NCBI GenBank assembly: GCA_052327205.1
Contig: CM126226.1
Span: forward strand, 31,310,001 to 31,374,000
Origin: Somniosus microcephalus
Lineage: Eukaryota
DNA length: 64,000 bases
Direction: 5' to 3'
Shown here: piece by piece, positions 46,801-60,669 of the stretch
How positions within the stretch are numbered: the stretch's first letter is position 1
Layout: each line of letters starts with the position of its first letter
Notes under the pieces: generated by a model
Databases searched by the model: none
What the model was told of the DNA's origin: nothing
Seen by the model: the letters and a program-made list of their open reading frames with translations, nothing else
Position numbers and translations under genes: made by a program

Positions 46801-49800
46801 AAAAACATCTCAAAGCATTTTACACACAATCAATTACTTTGAAATGCAGTGACTGTTATAAGAAAGAAAGAACTTGTATATTTATATATAGCAGCACCTT
46901 TCGCCACCCCCGGACGTCCCAAAGTCAACTAAGTACTTTTGAGGTGTAGTTACTGTTGTAATGTAGGAAATGTAGCAGCCAATTTGGTCACAGCAAGGTC
47001 GGGTGTTGGGTGAGGGATAAGTGTTGGACACCGGGAGAACTCCCCTGGTCTTCTGTGAATAGTACCATGGGATCTTTTACGTCCATCTGAGAGAGCAGAT
47101 GGGAAATCAAGCCCCACACCAGAGACTTGAGCACATACTCCAGGCTGACATTTTAGTGCAGAGCTGCACTGTCAGAGGTGCTGTGTTTTGGATCAGACAT
47201 TAAACCGAGGCCCCGTCTGCCCTCTCCGGTGGACGGAAACAATCTCATGGCATTATTTGAAGAAGATCAGGGGAGTTCACCTGGTGTCCTGGCCAACATT
47301 TATTCCTCAACCAACTAAAACAGATTATCTGACCATTATCACATTACTATTCGTGGCACCTTGCTGTGTGCAACTGGCTGCCGCGTTTCCCTACATTACA
47401 ACAGTGACTACCCTCAAAAGTACTTAATTGGCTGTAAAGCATTTTGGAACATCCTGAGGTCATGAAAGGCGCTATAGAAATGTAAGTTCTTTTTTTCCTT
47501 TAAATGTGATACATTAAAAGAATTTGGCAGATGTCCGACAGGGCAAGTCAATGGTAGAAGCTGACAACTGCTCAGAAGAAAGTTTCTATATTGTTCTCTG
47601 AGGTAGTCGAATTCTGCAAGTGATTCCAGAAGATCTAAGAATATGGTTGCTTGACTAGGAGCATAAGACTGAAGCAGTTAGGTGAATGAGCAGACCACTA
47701 TGCCACATTACAAGTGTTGGGGTCCCAGCGACTGGAGAGGAGACAGTTGGATGTGTGTCCACAGCTTCAAAATCCAGGAGGTGTGCCAGAGCAAGACCCC
47801 ATGGGGTGAGACCTCAGGTACTCCAGCTATAGCACAATATGGCACAGTACGAGCAACTGCTGGTCCAGGCGTGGGCCAGATCCCAATTAGGAAGGCCAAA
47901 CCCAACTCCGAAGACATGAAACTGGGGTGCGTGCAAAGGCATACGATAGCATTCCTGGGCTCAGTGTTGATAAACGATCCACCAAAGGACTACATGATAT
48001 TGGGTGCACCCTTACACTGGTAAAACCACCCCTGGTGCAGGACGACTAACACCTAGAGAATAGGCTGGCTCATGCTCGCTCATGGTCTCACTGGGTCAGT
48101 TGGCCAGTGATTGATCAGAATACCACTCGTGGTTGGTTGTGGAAGTAGTCACATCAACACCTATACCATTTCTGCTGGGAAATCATTTGTATGATGAGCA
48201 TGTTGTTGCTAATTTGGTTATAGAAGAGAAAGCTTGAGTGGTGACTCGGAGCCAGGCAAAGGCTGTGGTGTCCGTACAGTGTGAAAAAAGGATGGACATA
48301 CAGATGTTGTGGGTTCCTTGAACTGTCAGGAGTCACTCTGGGAATGGTACATATTAACCATGATAGACTACACACCTGGGTATCCAGATACAGTAGCTCT
48401 TATGCCCATGGCCGCAGATACCATAACCGATGCATTGTTAGAGATGTTTGCTCATCTCGTGTCCAAATTAGAAGCAAATCCTTTTCCTCCTCATCAGAAG
48501 AAAAAGATGGGGAAAAAACAAACTTAATTCGACTTCTTTTGCACACTTTCATTTTTAAAATATGTACTTATGGTGAGATTCCTTCTTAATCTCAGTAAAT
48601 GTGAAATGTTTTGTGGTATTGAATTCAGTGAAAATCCTAATCAAATTCCTCTTGTTTCAGGATCGCAAGCATTTCCAAGATATTCCCTACTATAATGCTG
48701 TACAAACTATGGCAGGAAGGAAAAATTACATCTCTGGATGACCCACTAACAAAATATGTCGAAAACTTTACAGTTAAAAACCCACTGGGCAACTCGAAAG
48801 AATTAGAACATAAATATGAAGCAGGCGGCCTGGTATTTCTTGAGAGAAGGAAATCTGCTACAAAGGTAGCATCTGTGACATTGAAAAGAATGGCCAGTCA
48901 GCTGTCAGGTGAGGAAAGTATTTTACAAAATATATTCTTGAACAAAATATAGATTAAACTGTTGTCTAGTTAATAATTTTAGAAAGTAACAACGTTATGT
49001 CAAGAAATAGAGTTAGCGTGGAGTAAGTCAAAGAAAGAGTGTAGTGAACACCTAAGCTAATTATGAGCAGGTTTTACACATTTGCACCTGTGCAGTTTTA
49101 CAAGCCAGGAACGTATATTGGAAATTTGGGCCTGGACTTCAGGAAGTATTCATTAAATATATTCACAATTCAGGAAGTATTCATTAAATATATTCACAAT
49201 TCATTAAATATATTCAAGAAGGAGTTGGATATATTTCTTAAGGCTAAAGGGATCAAGGGATATGGGGAGAAAGCAGGGACCGGGTACTGAATTTGAATGA
49301 TCAGCCATGATCTCATTGAATGGCGGAGCAGGCTTGAGGGGCCGAATGGCCTACTCCTGCTCCTATCTTCTATGTTTCTATGAAGTCCCAGAATATTTTC
49401 CATCCTGCGAAGCCTGCTGACCTATGGGCCCACATTTGCTGTATGCTCTCCCAGTGAACTAAATATCTTAACACCGAATTTAGAAAGTATCACAAAACAT
49501 CAAATTTTATAACTCTCATCTGCATACAGGCCAACCCACAAACCTCGGAAAAGCTCACAAATAACTTCAAAAAAGCTGACACCACCCCAAAAAGCTGACA
49601 ATTCAAAAACAGGCCTCAATCGAGGCCTATGACCACGGCCACTGTTTCAAGGTGACCCAATGTATTCAGCGAAAGACAGTGAAACAGCCAAGTAAACTTG
49701 GCCACATAATATTCAATTATGTGGAGAAATCAAGTTTAAAAAATAAAAAATAATTTCTTTATCTGTCGCCTTTTCACATTCTCCAACTTCCCAATCATGC

Positions 49801-52800: not shown

Positions 52801-54495
52801 TCTTTGCCCCATCTCTCAAATTTTCCTGCTCCTACACCCCCCCCCCCCCCCCCCCAACCCCACCAGGGGAACAAGTCAACCATTGATGGAACTGAGGTCC
52901 TTGTCCTGCCCAGCAATATTTAAATTAGTTGACTTTGGTATTTCTGATTGGTCCACCCATGGGTCAGTCGGTGGTTAGAAGCCTCACTCTGCTGTATTTT
53001 CAGCAATGGTTCAGGGACCCATGAATTTGTTACCAAGGAATAAATATAATTGGATTTTCAGAAACCATTTAAGAGAATTGGGGAGACCTGGTAGCCAGAT
53101 TATATAATCAGTGACAAATTTACAGAAGCATCTCCCAATATAAAGGCAGATTTAGGACTTTATAATAGCAAAAAATTGGCACACACAAAATCACAACAGG
53201 AAGTGCATGCAGCCAAATGTATATTCTAGGTAAATAGATAGATGCTTCCTAATTTAGGTTCTATTTAATGTTTTTATGTAAGGAAGCATTTGTGCAATGG
53301 CAACAACAACTACTTACATTTATATAGTGCCCTTAACGTAATAAAACGTCCCAAGGCGCTTCACAGAAGCGTTATCAGAAAACAAAATTTGACACCTAGC
53401 CGCACAAGATGTTAGGGCAAAAGCTTGGTCAAAGAGATAGGTTTTAAGGAGCGCTATTATAATATTATATAACAAGAAGTGTTATAATAACTGAATGACA
53501 CTTACTATTCTGTCTTTCTTAGATGCCATTACAGTAATTTGGCATTTTCCCTCCTGGCTCACATCCTGGCCAATAAAGTTGTTGGATCAGACTATCAACG
53601 CTGGATTACTGAGAATATTTTAACTAAAATAGGAATGGAGCACACTGGATTTGAGTTTACACTATCCGTCCGATCTCAGCTAGCGGTCGGTGTTTACAGC
53701 AATGGCCAACCAGCCCAGCTTTACGACCTTGGCTGGTACCGACCCTCTGGCCAAATGTATTCGACCGCTGCCGATCTGGCAAAGTTGGCTATGGTGCTTT
53801 TGGGAGCTATTCACAAACACCTTCTGCAGCCTGACGCCATAAAAATGATGCTTACGCCGGTATTCAGGTGTTCTGAGGATTACTTTGCCAGCAAGACAGG
53901 AACACCGTGGGAAATCAATGAACTATTTGGTTATGATATCATTAAGAAAGATGGCGACTTGGACGGTTACTCGGCTACGTTTTCCCTGGTTCCTGAACTC
54001 AAATTAGGATTCATTATTTTGATGTCAGGTTCCCGACCCCAAGAGGAAGACTTGACTGCGGGAGTTTATAATTATCTAATACCTGCGATGGAGTCTGCCT
54101 TCCGACAAAGCAACAAGGTTCTTTCTCCGCCTCCTCACTCGAAGCCTTATGTCGGTTACTATACATTTGCAAACTTGACCTTTTATGAGATAAAGAAAGA
54201 TGAGAATGGAGTATTAGTGATGCAGCAGTTTGGCCCTCATATTGAAACCTTGATACCTGAGAGATATAGGACTATCAAGCTATGTTATTTAGAAGAGAGG
54301 GTATTTCAAATTGTATTTGAAAAAGAATATCCATGTGTCTTGAAATTCAGCACAGCTTCAGTATCACTTGAAGCTCAAGATGGACAGCTGTTTAATTTTT
54401 TTCAGTTCAATAGAAAAGGCCTATCTACTGGCTTTGATGCTCCGGGTCTCAATACATATAATATCCTCCGAATAAGTCGGAAACCAAGATTTTGA
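40294..54495 (+). CDS. LACTBL1: Putative beta-lactamase-like protein (LACTBL1-like, serine hydrolase/PBP fold, N-terminal signal anchor), join(40294-40399,41189-41298,45171-45328,48661-48908,49914-50019,53523-54495), 1701 nt, 566 aa; may be extended N-terminally
   Basis: Six GT-AG exons in a continuous frame. N-terminus MDLKWPHLGMAFFILVSITMTCCFVWQYKLPK is hydrophobic; MCPRHPKPVPL follows; motif 1 YRIASISK (SxxK); LKRMASQLSGLPR; motif 2 CHYSNLAFSLL (YxN); PSGQMYSTAADLAKL; motif 3 KKDGDLDGYS. Ortholog versus paralog of human LACTBL1 is not resolved. Confidence 0.88.
40467..40912 (-). mobile_element. Deu-domain SINE, full length
   Basis: Reverse-complement homolog of 25651-26100. Confidence 0.75.
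41189..41298 (+). CDS. LACTBL1-like exon (110 nt)
   Basis: tttacttcag|GT GAA TTT ... CTA GAA AAG|gttagt; encodes EPKPVQMCPRHPKPVPLVHPMPILKEALEK. Confidence 0.9.
42175..42590 (+). mobile_element. CR1 3' fragment
   Basis: SRTRGHSLRIRGRPFKTEMRRNFFTQRVVNLWNSLP; cttatgtt tail. Confidence 0.9.
42977..43348 (+). mobile_element. Deu-domain SINE, 5'-truncated
   Basis: Homologous to 25737-26100. Confidence 0.75.
44010..44450 (-). mobile_element. LINE-derived 3' end of another family (shorter relatives near 9410-9560 and 41815-41875)
   Basis: Recurrent ggatgtgggcatcgctggcaag...gcccatccctaattgcccttgag motif; clade not determined. Confidence 0.5.
45171..45328 (+). CDS. LACTBL1-like exon (158 nt)
   Basis: ctctttcag|GTT GAC TTT ... 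GCT TAC AG|gtaact; encodes LPSISAIVIYNDTVLWTGNFGKRN. Confidence 0.9.
46861..47495. mobile_element. Two adjacent Deu-domain SINE fragments in opposite orientation
   Basis: 46861-47100 on the - strand and 47110-47495 on the + strand. Confidence 0.7.
48661..48908 (+). CDS. LACTBL1-like exon (248 nt; catalytic SxxK)
   Basis: cttgtttcag|G ATC GCA AGC ATT TCC AAG ... CTG TCA G|gtgagg. Confidence 0.92.
49200..49381 (+). mobile_element. Short young CR1 3' end
   Basis: Nearly identical to the reverse complement of 7024-7205. Confidence 0.85.
49426..49705. mobile_element. MITE-like element; inverted relative at about 39290-39445
   Basis: Imperfect termini GGGCCCACATTTGCT and AGTAAACTTGGCCAC; internal sequence is the reverse complement of 39290-39445. 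Confidence 0.45.
49914..50019 (+). CDS. LACTBL1-like exon (106 nt)
   Basis: ggtttgcag|GG TTA CCC AGG CGA ... GGC ACA AG|gttgga. Confidence 0.9.
51100..52415 (-). mobile_element. Relic of a Harbinger-type Myb/SANT (NAIF1-like) accessory gene
   Basis: Pieces RAAKFSEGDV, (ttcag)EKIARNSRVRR...GG...RPLT, acidic EEEEE; intron-like breaks; degraded. Confidence 0.4.
52415..52770 (-). mobile_element. CR1 3' fragment
   Basis: EMRRNFFAQRVVNLWNSLPQRAV; (ACATAAGA)n tail. Confidence 0.88.
53300..53455 (-). mobile_element. L2 3' end fragment
   Basis: (CAA)n tail; reverse complement of 38205-38375. Confidence 0.7.
53523..54495 (+). CDS. LACTBL1-like last coding exon (YSN and KDG motifs, stop TGA)
   Basis: tctttcttag|A TGC CAT TAC AGT AAT ...; matches the 318-aa ORF 53539-54495. 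Confidence 0.93.
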
Positions 54496-55517
54496 GATTT
54501 GACAATAGACTGTGGAGCCATTATGGGAACATTTGAAAAGCCACTTTATTTATAGAGTTGGGAACATAAGAAATTCTCGAAAAAGGGCCATTTGGCCTAT
54601 CGCACCTCCTCCATGCAGAGACCGTTTATGCTTACTCTATCGTGGGCTGCCACCATCTGTTGGTCCCCTATTTTACAGAACACACTGGCTTGGAATTTCC
54701 TCGGAGCAGCTCCCGCCCCCCCCCCGACGTGACTTCGGGTGAAGTAACAGCGGTGGAATAGCAGCAACGCCCAGCAGGAAATTCCCAGCCTGTATCTCTT
54801 TCACTTCCTCCTCAGGTGAAAAGTGCTGCTAAAATCTGTATAACCATCGAGCATTATTCTCAACAGATATCAATCTGGCTCCCTCTTAAATGTGTCAATT
54901 GGTCCTGAATCAACTACCATCTCTGGGGGTCTGTTCCAAGTAGACAGCAAATGAACACTCCCAATGAGCATAAGCTTTCTCTTTGTGCTTGTCTTTTAGT
55001 GTCATTTTGTTCTGCAAGGTAAGTCATGATAGGTAGTAAAATAGTGAAGTTTGGCTTTAAATACCACTGCTTGTAGAGTACCTTTGGCTAACAGAGGATC
55101 AAATCCATTCCCATTTGTGCTGGTGCTCTCACTTGCAATGGTCAGCACATTTTCATTGTAAACCATCAGATTCAAAGTAAATTTTCTTCAGTACTTCACA
55201 GGCAGCAAGCAGCTCCACAATTCGCTGTGCATATCTCAGCTACACAGTAACATGGTAATGTTTTGGGCAGGAGAAGATCAGTGTCTCCCGATCTAGCCTA
55301 CCCTTCCAAACCTCCCATCAGATTTCTTACTGTGATTCTATAATGAATTACCCTGAATCCTCTAACTGCGAACAGGAATTCATCCAGTTCTTTTTAAAAC
55401 CTGCCATGGTTTTCTGTTCAACTCTGCTGGTAATCTTGTCCACATTTCTACCACCCTCCTACTAAAAAAAAATGTTGCCTAATTTCTTTTGATACCCTTA
55501 ACTCTAAATTGTGTTCC

Positions 55518-55752
55518 TGATGCGCTATCAATTACTCATAAAAGACTGAGAGTTAGAAGAGTAACTAAAGGCTTTTATTAACAACAGAATGGAGGTCTGC
55601 CTCGCGTGGTCGACCGGTCCAGGATACAAAGGGCTGGGGAGCAGTCACCTTTATACTAGGACCTGTGGGAGGAGTCAGCCGAGGCATGTCCAGGCATGTA
55701 CACAGTGGAATACAAACAGGACAAACAGGAATACAAACAGTGGTTTACCACA
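55518..55752 (-). repeat. 3' LTR
   Basis: Matches 59637-59871 except A55692 versus G59811. Confidence 0.96.
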
Positions 55753-55794
55753 TTCACCCCTTGTTTAAAATTGAGTCCGGCGGGGTGAAGTGTA

Positions 55795-58700
55795 TTAAAA
55801 GTTAGTGTATTGGAGTCTCTCCGGAGGTCTTGTCTGCCACTGTGATCGGCGTGGCGACGACAGGGGTAGTGAAGCTTCTGGCGTCGAGTCCAGCGTAGGC
55901 TGTGGCACAGGCGTGTCATCCTCGTAGATGTCGAGCGGATCGCGGGGCCCAGGCCTGCTGTCTGCTGGGGCTGGATATCGGATCGTGGGGGGGGGTGGTA
56001 GTGGGTAGTGGGTTACTGCGGCCCCCGAGGGTGCAAGGTCTCTTATGGAGACTGTGTCCTCCCGCCCGTCCGGGTATGCGATGTAAGCATACTGGGGGTT
56101 GGCGTGGAGGAGGTCGACCCTCTCGACCAGGGGGTCCGTTTTATGGGTCCTCACGTGTCTTCTCAGTAGGACCGGCCCTGGGGACGTCAGCCATGGCGGT
56201 AGCGATGTCCCCGATGTGGACTTCCTTGGGAAGACAAACATTTTCTCATGAGGGGTGGCGTTAGTGGCAGTGCAGAGCAGTGACCGAATAGAGTGGAGCG
56301 CATCGGGGAGCACATCCTGCCAGCGGGAGGTTGGAAGGCCCCTAGACTTTAAGGCTAGCAGGACGGCCTTCCAAACTGTCGCATTTTCTCTTTCCACCTG
56401 TCCGTTCCCCCGGGGGTTGTAACTGGTGGTCCTGCTTGTGGCAATACCCCTAGTTAGCAGGTACTGACGGAGTTCGTCGCTCATAAACGATGAGCCCCGG
56501 TCGCTATGGATATAGCTGGGGAAGCCGAACAGGGTGAAGAGGTTGTTCAGACATTTAATGACCGTGGCACTGGTCATGTCCGGGCAGGGGAAGGCGAACG
56601 GGAAATGGGAGTACTCATCAATAATATTGAGGAAGTACACATTGCAGTCGGAGGAGGGGAGAGGCCCTTTAAAATCAACGCTCAGGCGCTCGAAGGGGCG
56701 AGTGGCTTTTATCAGGTGGGCCCTGTCTGGTCTATAAAAGTGCGGTTTGCACTCAGCGCAGACTTGGCAGTTCCTGGTCATGGTCCTGACCTCCTCAATA
56801 GAGTAAGGCAGGTTGCGGGCCTTGATGAGGTGGAAGAACCTGGTGACCCCCGGGTGGCAGAGGTCATTGTGGAGGGCCCGCAGTCTATCGATCTGCGCGC
56901 TGGCGCAGGTGCCACGCGATAGCGCATCCGGGGGTTCATTTAGCTTCCCGGGCCGGTACAAGATCTCGTAGTTGTAGGTGGAAAGTTCGATTCTCCACCT
57001 CAAGATCTTGTCATTTTTGATTTTGCCCCTCTGCTTGTTGTTAAACATAAAAGCAACTGAACGCTGGTCAGTGAGCAGGGTAAATCGTTTTCCGGCCAGG
57101 TAGTGCCTCCAATGACGCACAGCCTCCACAATCGCCTGGGCCTCCTTCTCAACAGCGGAGTGTCTGGTCTCCGGGCCTTGGAGGGTTCATGAAAAGAAGG
57201 CCACGGGTCTCCCTGCCTGATTGAGGGTAGCGGCCAGGGCAAAGTCGGACGCGTCGCTTTCCACCTGGAAGGGGATGGATTCGTCCACCGCGTGCATGGT
57301 GGCTTTGGCAATGTCCTCCTTGATACGGTGGAAGGCTAAGCGGGCCTCTGCCGTCAAGGGAAAAGAGGTGGACTTGATCAGCGGACGGGCCTTGTCCGCA
57401 TAGTAGGGGACCCACTGGGCGTAATAGGAGAAAAACCCTAGGCACCTCTTCAGGGCCTTGAGGCAGTGGGGCAGTGGAAGTTCCATAAGGGGACGCATCC
57501 GGTCGGGGTCGGGGCCGATGACTCCGTGTTCCACAACACAGCCAAGGATGGCGAGGCGGTTTGTGCGGAATATGCACTTCTCCTTGTTATATGTCAGGTT
57601 TAGGAGTTGGGCGGTGCGGAGGAATTTTTCGAGGTTTGCGTCATGGTCCTGCAAGTCACGGCTGCAGATGGTCACATTGTCCAGATATGGGAAAGTGGCC
57701 TGCAACGCATTTTGATCTACCATCCGGTCCATCTCCCTTTGGAAGACGGAGACCCCGTTGGTGATGCCAAAGGGAACCCTAAGGAAGTGATAGAGGCGGC
57801 CGTTTGCCTCAAAGGCAGTGTACTGGCGGTCCTCAGGGCGGATGAGGAGCTGGTGGTACGCTGATTTCAGGTCAATGGTCGAGAAGACGCGGTACTGCGC
57901 GATCTGGTTGACCATGTCAGCTATACGGGGGAGTGGGTAGGCGTCCAGCAGGGTGTAGCGATTTATTGTCTGGCTGTAGTCGATGACCAGGCGCTGCTTC
58001 TCGCCGGTCTTAACGACCACAACCTGGGCTCGCCAGGGGCTGGTGCTGCCCTCAATAATCCCTTCTTTCAGGAGCCGCTCCACTTCGGTTTTAATGAAAA
58101 CCCTGTCCCCGGCACTGTATCGCCTGCTCTTTGTGGCGATGGGCTTACAGTCGGGGGTGAGGTTAGCAAACAGTGGTGGGGGGGTGACTCTGAGTGTGGA
58201 GAGGTTGCACCTGGTGCGTGGCGGGCAGTTTGGAAGCTGCTGGCTGCGGACTGTGAGTGGGGGGAGGGGTCCACCGTACGCCATCGTAACACTTTTAAGG
58301 TGGCACTGAAAATCTAACCCCAGCAGGACGGCAGCGCAGAGGTCAGGCAGGACCAGAAGTTTAAAATGATCGTACACGGTCCCGTCTACTACGAGTGTCA
58401 CCACGCAGTAGCCGCCGATGTCCGCCGACTGGGACTCGGAGGCCATAGAAATCCGCTGTTGCGCAGGCAGGACTGGGAGAGAGCAACGCCGCACCGTGTC
58501 GGGGTGGATGAAGCTCTCCGTGCTCCCAGAGTCAAAAAGGCAGATTGTATCGTGACCATTTACCTTAATGTCCATTGCGGAACTGGCCAGTTGGTGCGGT
58601 CTCGCTTGGTCCAGTGTAACGGATGCCAGCGTAGGGGTCGGTGTGTCGCTGCGGGTATCAGATGAGGCGGTGTCGGGGGCCTGCTGCGTCCCGGCTGTCG

Positions 58701-59613
58701 TCCAAGATGGCGGCGTCCATGATCCCCATGTGGCTGGAGGCGTCCAAAATGGCTGCAGTACCGGTGATTCGCACATGGCCGGGGAGGTCCAAGATGGCGG
58801 CCCGCATGGCCCACACGCGGTGCTGCTGGGGTTCGGGGTGGCTTTGGCCCTGCAGACGCTAGCATAGTGTCCCTTCTTCCCGCAGCCCGAGCAGATCGCG
58901 TTTTTTGCCAGGCAGCGCGCTCTGGGGTGTTTTGCCTGGCCACAGAAGTAGCATTTCTGGCCTTGGGGCACTGCTGCGGTAGTTGGGCCATTGTTGGGGT
59001 GTGGCTGGGGTGGCACGGCGCTATGAGGCGGTCCTACCGTGTCCCAGGCTGTCATTCCCCGCGGCGTCCACGGTGCAGAGGAGTAGGCATCCATGCCCTG
59101 GTAGGCTGCATCCAACGATAGTGCGAGTTCAGAGGCCTTGTTGAGGTCGAGGTTACTCTGCTCCAACAGTCGCTGTCGGGTGTAATTGGATCTGTGGCCC
59201 GCTACAAAAGCGTCCCGGATAAGTTCCTCTGTGTACACGGCGGCCTTTACATCCTTACAACCACAGGCCCGGCCAAGCACAGACAGTGCCTGAAGGTATT
59301 CCACGGTCGATTCCCCAGGTTGTTGTTTACGACTCCCCAGGAGGTGCCTGGCGTACACTTCGTTCACTGGGCGCGTGTACTGGTCCTTGAGGAGCTTGAT
59401 AGCGTCCGCGTACGAGGTCGCGTCTTGGATGACCGAGTACACTCGGTGGTTCACTTTGGAGGTCAGGACATCCAGTTTGTCCTCGTCCGATTTGATTGCT
59501 TCGGAGGCGGTCAGGAATTTTTCGAAACACTTAAGCCAGTGAGTAAACTTGGTGGATGAGTCCGCCTCCCGATGATCTAAGTCCAGGCATGCTGGTGTGA
59601 GGATCTTCTCCAT
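55795..59613 (-). pseudogene. gag-pol polyprotein (1272 codons) with one in-frame premature TGA at 57187-57189
   Basis: ORFs 57187-59613 and 55795-57129 share a frame. Gag CYFCGQAKHPRARC and CSGCGKKGHYASVC; protease LFDSGS; RT FSTIDLKSAYHQ, PFGITN, YLDN; RNase H VESDASD...GRPVAFFS*TL...EKEA...TDQ...DALSR; integrase H-H-C-C, SVDFKGP, HSDRG, NGQVER. Confidence 0.93.
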
Positions 59614-59636
59614 TATAAAAATGTTGTTAATAAAAT

Positions 59637-59871
59637 TGATGCGCTATCAATTACTCATAAAAGACTGAGAGTTAGAAGAGTAACTAAAGGCTTTTATTAA
59701 CAACAGAATGGAGGTCTGCCTCGCGTGGTCGACCGGTCCAGGATACAAAGGGCTGGGGAGCAGTCACCTTTATACTAGGACCTGTGGGAGGAGTCAGCCG
59801 AGGCATGTCCGGGCATGTACACAGTGGAATACAAACAGGACAAACAGGAATACAAACAGTGGTTTACCACA
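59637..59871 (-). repeat. 5' LTR (TATAAA 59769-59774, AATAAA 59693-59698 on the - strand)
   Basis: Direct repeat of 55518-55752; - strand reads TGTGGTAAAC...GATAGCGCATCA. Confidence 0.96.
59801..59820. promoter_or_regulatory. p53-family response element in the LTR U3 (second copy at 55682-55701)
   Basis: AGGCATGTCC GGGCATGTAC, two abutting RRRCWWGYYY half-sites, 19/20 match. Confidence 0.6.
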
Positions 59872-60319
59872 GTTCCCTCGTCCTTAAATTCTGTACCTGA
59901 CACAAGAAGTTTCTGGATCTAATTTCTCGCTATCCCTGAAAATTTTACGGACCTTATCAAGTCCTCGCTCATTCTCCTCTTCACAAGACACTAAAGTCCC
60001 TGGGTAGACAATCTTTCCTCATAAACCAGCTCTCTAAGTTCAGGAATCAGCCTCGTGCCTCCCCGTCCCCTGGATTTCCTCAAATAACTCCCTATCTTTT
60101 CTGTAATGTGGAGAACAAAGCTGAATAAAATACTTCAGATGAAATCTCACCTGATAAAGCACCCCTGCCACTATCCCAACATTTTATTTGCTTTCTTAAC
60201 TGACTACAAACACTGAACTGGCAATTTTAATTACCTAAATGAAAGAATGAACTTGTATTTATATAGCGCCTCTCGCGTCCTTGGGACATCCCAAAGTATT
60301 TCACTGCCACTGTTATAAT

Positions 60320-60669
60320 CACAGAATCAGAATCACAGAAACCCCACAGTGCAGATAGAGGCCATTTCGGCCCATCGAGCCTGCACCGATACATATCCCA
60401 CCCGATCCCCGTAACCCCTACACCAACACATATCCCACCCCTATCCCCGTAACCCCACGTATTTAATCCCCCTAACACTAAGGGTCAATTTTATCAACCT
60501 AACCCGCACATCTTTGGACTGTGGGAGGAAACCGGAGCACCCGGAGGAAACCCACGCAAACACGGGGAGAATGTGCAAACTCCACACAGACAGTCGCCCG
60601 AGGCCGGATTCGAACCCGGGTCCCTGGCGCTGTGAGGCAACAGTGCTAACCACTATGCCACCGTGCTGC
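60320..60669 (-). mobile_element. HE1-like V-SINE (tRNA-derived)
   Basis: - strand GCAGCACGGTGGCATAGTGGTTAGCACTG...GGTTCGAATCC...TGTGTGGAGTTTGCACATTCTCCCCGTG...GGTTTCCTCCGGGTGCTCCGGTTTCCTCCCACAGTCCAAAGA; (GATTCT)n tail. Confidence 0.85.

Follow-up and report, generated by a model that had tools for sequence, protein, structure and literature searches.

How does a Gypsy retrotransposon prime its minus strand when no tRNA complement follows its 5′ LTR? The question is raised by an element in a 64,000-nucleotide stretch of the Somniosus microcephalus genome (6.4 Gb), hereafter the window, in which a sequence-only reading had noticed that the bases following the LTR pair with the LTR itself. Here we follow this pairing through related elements and through fold-back copies left in the genome, and conclude that self-priming in some form is very probable. 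If true, a second large animal lineage would prime with a different geometry, making tRNA-free priming common and possibly convergent. It would account for tRNA-based annotation finding no primer site in elements of this clade, which would presumably also evade control by tRNA fragments.

The element and its primer site

The window holds a young Gypsy element (Table 1). Like other Ty3/Gypsy LTR retrotransposons, it has LTRs of the form TG...CA, a 5-bp target-site duplication, a polypurine tract and the domain order PR-RT-RH-IN. Pfam recognizes protease, RT, RNase H and integrase, and the nearest solved structure for the RT is that of Ty3 (E 1.5e-35). By Pfam the integrase tail carries neither a chromodomain nor a Tf2-type SH3 domain, in agreement with the earlier remark that no chromodomain was visible, and the double CCHC motif noticed in Gag is indeed present in the translation. 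Among named proteins, the closest belong to rays and sharks.

Two host exons lie on the + strand of the window at 48641-48952 and 53491-54495, which we take to resemble a serine beta-lactamase-like protein; the element is located about 1 kb beyond the second, on the opposite strand. Directly upstream of the element, 60300-60660 (-) is interspersed-repeat-like sequence, presumably SINE-derived by its resemblance.

Table 1. Coordinates of the element and of its predicted priming signals in the window
Feature	Position	Strand	Details
Target-site duplication GGAAC	59872..59876	-	5 bp; second copy 55513-55517
5′ LTR	59637..59871	-	235 nt, TG...CA; 99.6% identity with 3′ LTR
TATA box TATAAA	59769..59774	-	first T = 59774
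Inferred RNA start and primer 5′ end	59740..59746	-	+28 to +34 from TATA; basis: endpoints of fold-back copies
Predicted GC-rich hairpin, leader of putative primer	59707..59740	-	RNA fold
Paired strand, 3′ 14 nt of putative primer	59692..59705	-	contains AATAAA; inferred cut 59692/59691
Predicted U5 hairpin	59641..59691	-	begins directly after inferred cut; 59691-59678 with 59656-59641
Spacer A between LTR end and primer site	59636..59636	-	1 nt; A in 19/20 families
Primer-binding site	59622..59635	-	complement of 59705-59692
Single gag-PR-RT-RNase H-IN frame	55795..59613	-	one in-frame stop 57189-57187 in RNase H; without chromodomain
Two CCHC zinc knuckles in Gag	58852..58953	-	from translation
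Polypurine tract	55753..55766	-	
3′ LTR	55518..55752	-	235 nt; AATAAA there without downstream pairing partner

On the - strand the 5′ LTR ends in ...GCGCATCA and is followed by a single A (59636) and by TTTTATTAACAACA (59635-59622). As had been reported, a perfect 14-nt complement of this site, TGTTGTTAATAAAA, is found inside the LTR at 59705-59692. It was also right that no TGG follows the 5′ LTR and that only 23 nt separate it from the gag ATG at 59613; an Rfam scan of 59500-59900 returned no match. The paired strand had been placed about 60 nt downstream of the TATA box: downstream it is, but it starts 69 nt after the first T of TATAAA. Likewise an additional pairing of CTCCATT with AATGGAG (59713-59707 with 59614-59608) exists in the sequence but is absent from the minimum-energy fold.

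The RNA between 59750 and 59600 is predicted to fold with an energy of -38.5 kcal/mol (z -3.98), which none of 200 shuffles equals, and in the predicted fold the primer helix continues into the U5 hairpin. Using a register test, which takes the longest perfect complement beginning one base after a CA, the best match of the window element is 14 bp compared to a shuffled mean of 5.3 (p 0.003).

Complementarity across the clade

A DNA search for the window's family gave 178 candidates and 40 scored matches, of which 30 copies were fetched. All 30 keep the primer site, which the query itself contained, and two have a single change in the LTR arm. A preference for AAC targets, apparent in all 30 of these copies, proved to be a ranking artefact of four flanking bases in the query, since only 2 of 27 copies chosen otherwise have AAC. 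The 3′ LTR truncation seen in 3 of 10 full copies is due to a nested insertion (two copies) or a small indel (one).

To reach more distant relatives, a Gag search yielded 119 proteins, an alignment of 52 of which led to 80 metagenome loci and 13 loci from bacterial bins. The names attached to the Gag relatives are those of cartilaginous fish, crustaceans, an ant, a snail, a tunicate, a nematode, a ctenophore and a coral. L181-L192 are animal retrotransposon contigs within bacterial metagenome bins, with L189, L191 and L192 being tRNA-primed Gypsy elements. Among viral contigs, 41 pattern matches included no relative. From the 93 loci, together with three families of the same genome, 36 loci having a Gag start and enough upstream DNA were retained for testing, the others being excluded for having no Gag start, too little upstream sequence (5) or an N (1).

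Perfect matches of 10-16 bp at the base after CA were found in 25 of the 36 loci, representing 20 families, compared to shuffled means of 4.6-5.8. The remaining 11 fail the strict test, six through one mismatch or a shifted register and five for want of an intact upstream LTR. In the tested loci the distance between the start codon and the first base of the primer site is 14-54 nt. The sequence-only reading had named a canonical primer site in other copies of the family as a finding that would speak against it; a TGG-initiated site occurs in none of the 30 family copies, none of the 54 sister-family copies chosen by Gag (54 read out of 55) and none of the 36 clade loci.

In the commonest family of the sample L245-L274, a short-repeat N-terminal extension of Gag directly follows the primer site. 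L171 and L177 contain a GC-rich element with similar ends at the same U5 position of two 3′ LTRs, and a start similar to that of this insert comes after the truncated LTR of the Mag-type L234.

The sequence-only reading had called for a test of covariation between the post-LTR 14-mer and the LTR, and covariation is what relatives reveal: the two arms diverge between families and remain complementary. The set of 20 families comprises one representative each of loci passing the register test, so that pairing at positions 1-11 is given by construction. Two to three pair types are present at each of positions 4-9 and four at positions 12 and 13. Over positions 5-12, families pair at 7.9 of 8 positions with their own LTR versus 4.6 of 8 with the LTRs of other families, and only 3 of 380 cross pairs are complete. 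Because the sequences vary between families yet stay complementary to their own LTR, a host tRNA, or an internal part of one, is unlikely to fit; several different primer sites moreover coexist within one genome.

The same holds on a smaller scale. L049 and L039 are 98.5% identical and differ by one compensatory pair. A pattern with 714 matches, whose spacer length leaves out the bulk of the window's own family and of the L111 family and which therefore samples sister families, provided 30 copies in genome order. At position 9, 20 of them carry T:A, 10 carry C:G and none is mixed, a split that one or two events may account for. At the paired places 59623 and 59704, reads of a related species contain both alternative letters, complementary to each other, irrespective of linkage between the two places.

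Some features of the pairing are nearly constant. The 1-nt spacer and the A:T pairs at positions 1 and 3 are constant among the 20 families, and a G:C pair is found at position 10 in 20/20 and, by eye, at position 11 in L184 outside the set. The motif RCCT follows the paired strand in 17 families; in 16 it opens the U5 hairpin at the base after the pair, where shuffled U5 sequences would give 5.5. The paired strand ends in AAA in 19 families and in GAAGA in one. The AATAAA noticed within the paired strand of the window element is shared as A(A/T)TAAA by 14 of the 20 families and is thus not universal, being located only downstream in two and not found in four. Relative to the inferred cut, a canonical poly(A) hexamer is located between -7 and +26 in 16/16 families having one. 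In the shark families of the clade TATAAA lies 83-87 nt before the end of the paired strand; for most non-shark families no such box can be assigned, and the long leader may therefore be peculiar to sharks.

Fold-back copies and the course of priming

Since Tf1 cDNA often retains a copy of its primer, we searched for genomic fold-back copies, in which the LTR end leads into sequence complementary to the paired strand and to the LTR stretch preceding it. Three families gave 20, 3 and 15 matches and a general pattern gave 3 more, for a total of 41. The window's family, with 15, is far richer in them relative to its size than the large L111 family, with 3. Twenty of the 41 extend all the way to the LTR start, which is what self-folding of plus-strand DNA would be expected to give. 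L266 was considered as a primer copy and rejected as a rearrangement because it runs to the LTR start; in L266 and L063 the two arms enclose an inverted U5 loop.

The remaining 21 end short of it and, after removal of two duplicate pairs, correspond to 19 partial events, L287 and L291 counting separately because they share a junction but differ in LTR and flank. Relative to the TATA box, 12 end at -15, -13, 20, 28, 28, 29, 29, 30, 30, 30, 33 and 34, and the remaining seven at 44, 49, 50, 52, 58, 60 and 62. Nine of the 19 thus fall between +28 and +34, with three further upstream, a pile-up with p 2e-6 against a uniform model, 2e-4 against a geometric model and 5e-5 by scan, these values applying to an interval first seen in the same data, to few endpoints and to ends blurred by 0-8 nt of microhomology. 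The exit rate per nt is 0.044 within this interval, 0.007 before it and 0.001 after it. Two partial events fetched after the hypothesis had been formed end at +29 and +33, both inside. One copy, L310, ends at +30 without microhomology, with two extra bases and with matching target-site duplications on both sides.

From their endpoints we read the partial fold-backs as copied from an RNA that begins about 30 nt past the TATA box. Plus-strand DNA re-annealing to the 5′ end of uncut RNA would produce the pile-up equally well; what the pile-up shows is the RNA start, not a primer retaining its leader. A search for RNA datasets containing the exact stretch listed none. Transcription is seen in two RNA-seq runs from a related species, one run covering gag nearly all on one strand, which is the sense strand if the usual library convention applies; neither run has a sharp start, end or poly(A) junction.

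The minus-strand primer is likely a piece of the element's own RNA, released by a cut near the RNA 5′ end and predicted to measure about 54 nt, its last 11-16 nt being paired. Transcription would start about 30 nt after the TATA box, near 59744, and folding of the RNA would bring the primer helix against the U5 hairpin. A cut at the junction of helix and hairpin (between A and GCCT, 59692/59691), probably by the element's own RNase H by analogy with Tf1, would free a 3′ OH from which RT would copy U5 back as far as the cut. Transfer to the RNA 3′ end would use the segment reaching from the cut to the poly(A) site, which requires a poly(A) hexamer near the cut such as the one observed. Plus-strand synthesis would then copy the primer and regenerate the primer site from the LTR, which would explain the tight covariation. 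Masking of the 5′ poly(A) signal is likely a side effect in families having the signal inside the pair.

The best surviving alternative, though an unlikely one, keeps the exact geometry of Tf1: the RNA would start at the paired strand, or its leader would be trimmed beforehand, and the primer would measure only 11-16 nt. The RNA start is after all deduced, with no sharp start in the RNA-seq runs, and this alternative would accommodate the 7 of 19 partial fold-backs ending at +44 to +62 as well as the short-LTR relatives without a clear TATA box. It does not fit the 83-87 nt separating TATAAA from the cut in the shark families or the clustering of fold-back endpoints at +28 to +34; a same-genome chromovirus, in contrast, has its match at +30 and lacks extended copies. 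The chromovirus gave no fold-back match at all, a weak control because its arms are shorter.

It is quite improbable that the primer is instead the 3′ copy of R, at the end of either the genomic RNA or a polyadenylated short transcript of the LTR, trimmed to the A-run. Full-length 3′ ends should give copies continuing through U3 into pol, whereas of the 20 that reach the LTR start only L286 goes on, entering the polypurine tract for a short way. The AAA end in 19/20 families and the A(A/T)TAAA inside the pair in 14/20 would suit such a primer; the family ending in GAAGA and the six with no hexamer in the pair would not. A short transcript from start to poly(A) site might still act in trans. 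The sequence-only reading had offered an internal R segment or the RNA 3′ end as primer: covariation and fold-backs favor the former, and the latter is disfavored because partial copies stop at the predicted RNA start rather than continuing into U3.

Very improbable, too, is a stem that merely masks the 5′ poly(A) signal or regulates gag translation while another molecule, for example a host RNA, acts as primer. Such a stem could form only at the 5′ LTR, would cover the hexamer in 14/20 families and would lie close to the start codon (14-54 nt from the first base of the site). However, the hexamer is outside the pair in L031 and L033, so hiding it is not the conserved purpose, and masking has no need of a fixed 1-nt register; a host primer would require a TGG or other constant site, neither of which remains, and is at odds with the different sites coexisting in one genome. 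Chance complementarity between two AT-rich arms can be dismissed, being refuted by covariation and by the shuffle, cross-family and Mag-type controls.

The preferred reading, a primer cut from the RNA 5′ end, can be extended to a fuller proposal that we put forward tentatively: an animal-wide, non-chromovirus Gypsy clade with self-priming independent of Tf1, an internal cut at the junction of primer helix and U5 hairpin by the poly(A) signal, a capped leader primer of about 54 nt, a register set by the near-invariant G-C ten bases from the cut, and DNA copies of the primer retained in the genome. Fold-back copies offer a means of deducing from the genome sequence alone how long the primer is and where the RNA starts, and for the window element they yield a sharp prediction, namely a cap near 59744 and a cut at 59692/59691.

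Comparison with known systems

Quick RT trees were built with 37 rows of the clade, 8 sushi-like rows and 22 Mag-like rows, the sushi-like RTs being those of the same genome without Tf1 itself. The element's clade is separate from both the sushi-like and the Mag-like rows (SH-aLRT 100). Grouping with the Mag-like rows receives a support of only 54 in a tree holding no named Mag or SURL reference. A subset of 22 rows neither supports nor rejects a pairing with sushi-like or with Mag-like rows; a sister relation to the sushi-like elements keeps a p-AU of 0.56, which leaves the suggested independent origin of self-priming without support. Judging from the portion of PMC6238403 consulted, Cigr-1 or a MolGy clade are candidates for the identity of this clade.

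The sequence-only reading had called the Gag Mag-like. Elements of this genome that we presume to be of Mag type from a DLRxxNKAI motif (P0119 and relatives) do share with the window clade a single ORF, two zinc knuckles, short LTRs and the lack of a chromodomain. They differ in RT clade and in having TGG sites without self-complementarity: in 4/4 of those with a clean LTR end (of 10), the site starts with TGG or TTGG and the self-match is at most 5 nt.

A literature search with subscription journals and Repbase Reports outside its scope gave no description of priming in the window clade. Repbase entries named as self-primed Gypsy from sea urchin or fish reportedly exist and may concern it. 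In the parts consulted of PMC3601003, PMC6317226, PMC6238403, PMC4600332, PMC7175516, PMC12440569, PMC5341516, PMC6934838, PMC5006619, PMC11042837 and PMC10085805, self-priming of Gypsy elements is tied to Tf1/sushi and Tcn1. For the plant Tcn1 clade and the TAR/Houba copia elements it was predicted, according to the consulted part of PMC6317226, from at least 10 bp of complementarity starting 0-5 bp after the LTR. The window element has such complementarity as well, whereas Tcn1 (a chromovirus) and TAR (a copia element) belong to other lineages and other hosts. Dictyostelid Skipper (PMC5006619) and fungal GalEa (PMC6934838) are also LTR elements described, in the parts consulted, as having no canonical tRNA site; unlike the window clade, Skipper has a polypyrimidine tract without LTR complement and GalEa an internal hairpin.

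Sushi-like elements of the same genome provide a nearer comparison. Among those found by their Tf2-type SH3 domain, L242 has a chromodomain; three other sushi-like frames that were scanned have none. L163, L164, L241 and L242 show a 10-11 nt match between site and LTR that begins, as counted by eye, 30 nt past a TATA-like box and so has the geometry of Tf1; the match of the chromodomain-bearing element is 11 nt. The sushi-like L166 (G000:C6:131184500-131192700) has the primer site of L163 with its LTR match split into GCTCAG and TCTTGC about 25 nt apart, so that only a loop-out or a splice would allow the pairing.

In Tf1 the RNA's initial 11 bases pair and RNase H cleaves between bases 11 and 12 (PMC7175516), a three-duplex "pretzel" is formed (PMC10085805) and about half of the cDNA keeps a primer copy at its 3′ end (PMC11042837), as stated in the consulted parts of these papers. 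Like Tf1/Tf2 of S. pombe, Tj1 and the Tf1/sushi chromoviruses, the window clade lacks a tRNA site and has a site complementary to its own 5′ LTR, with extra duplexes predicted beside it. It differs from them by a separate RT clade and two CCHC knuckles, by the lack of a chromodomain in the window element and five intact relatives, and by the lack of a Tf2-type SH3 domain. Its paired strand would lie about 40 nt inside the inferred RNA rather than at the first base, usually overlapping the poly(A) signal, and its primer would measure about 54 nt instead of the first 11. Of the three duplexes of a pretzel, a primer helix and one U5 hairpin are predicted. The window element is thus most likely self-priming, working like Tf1 without being a member of the Tf1/sushi group.
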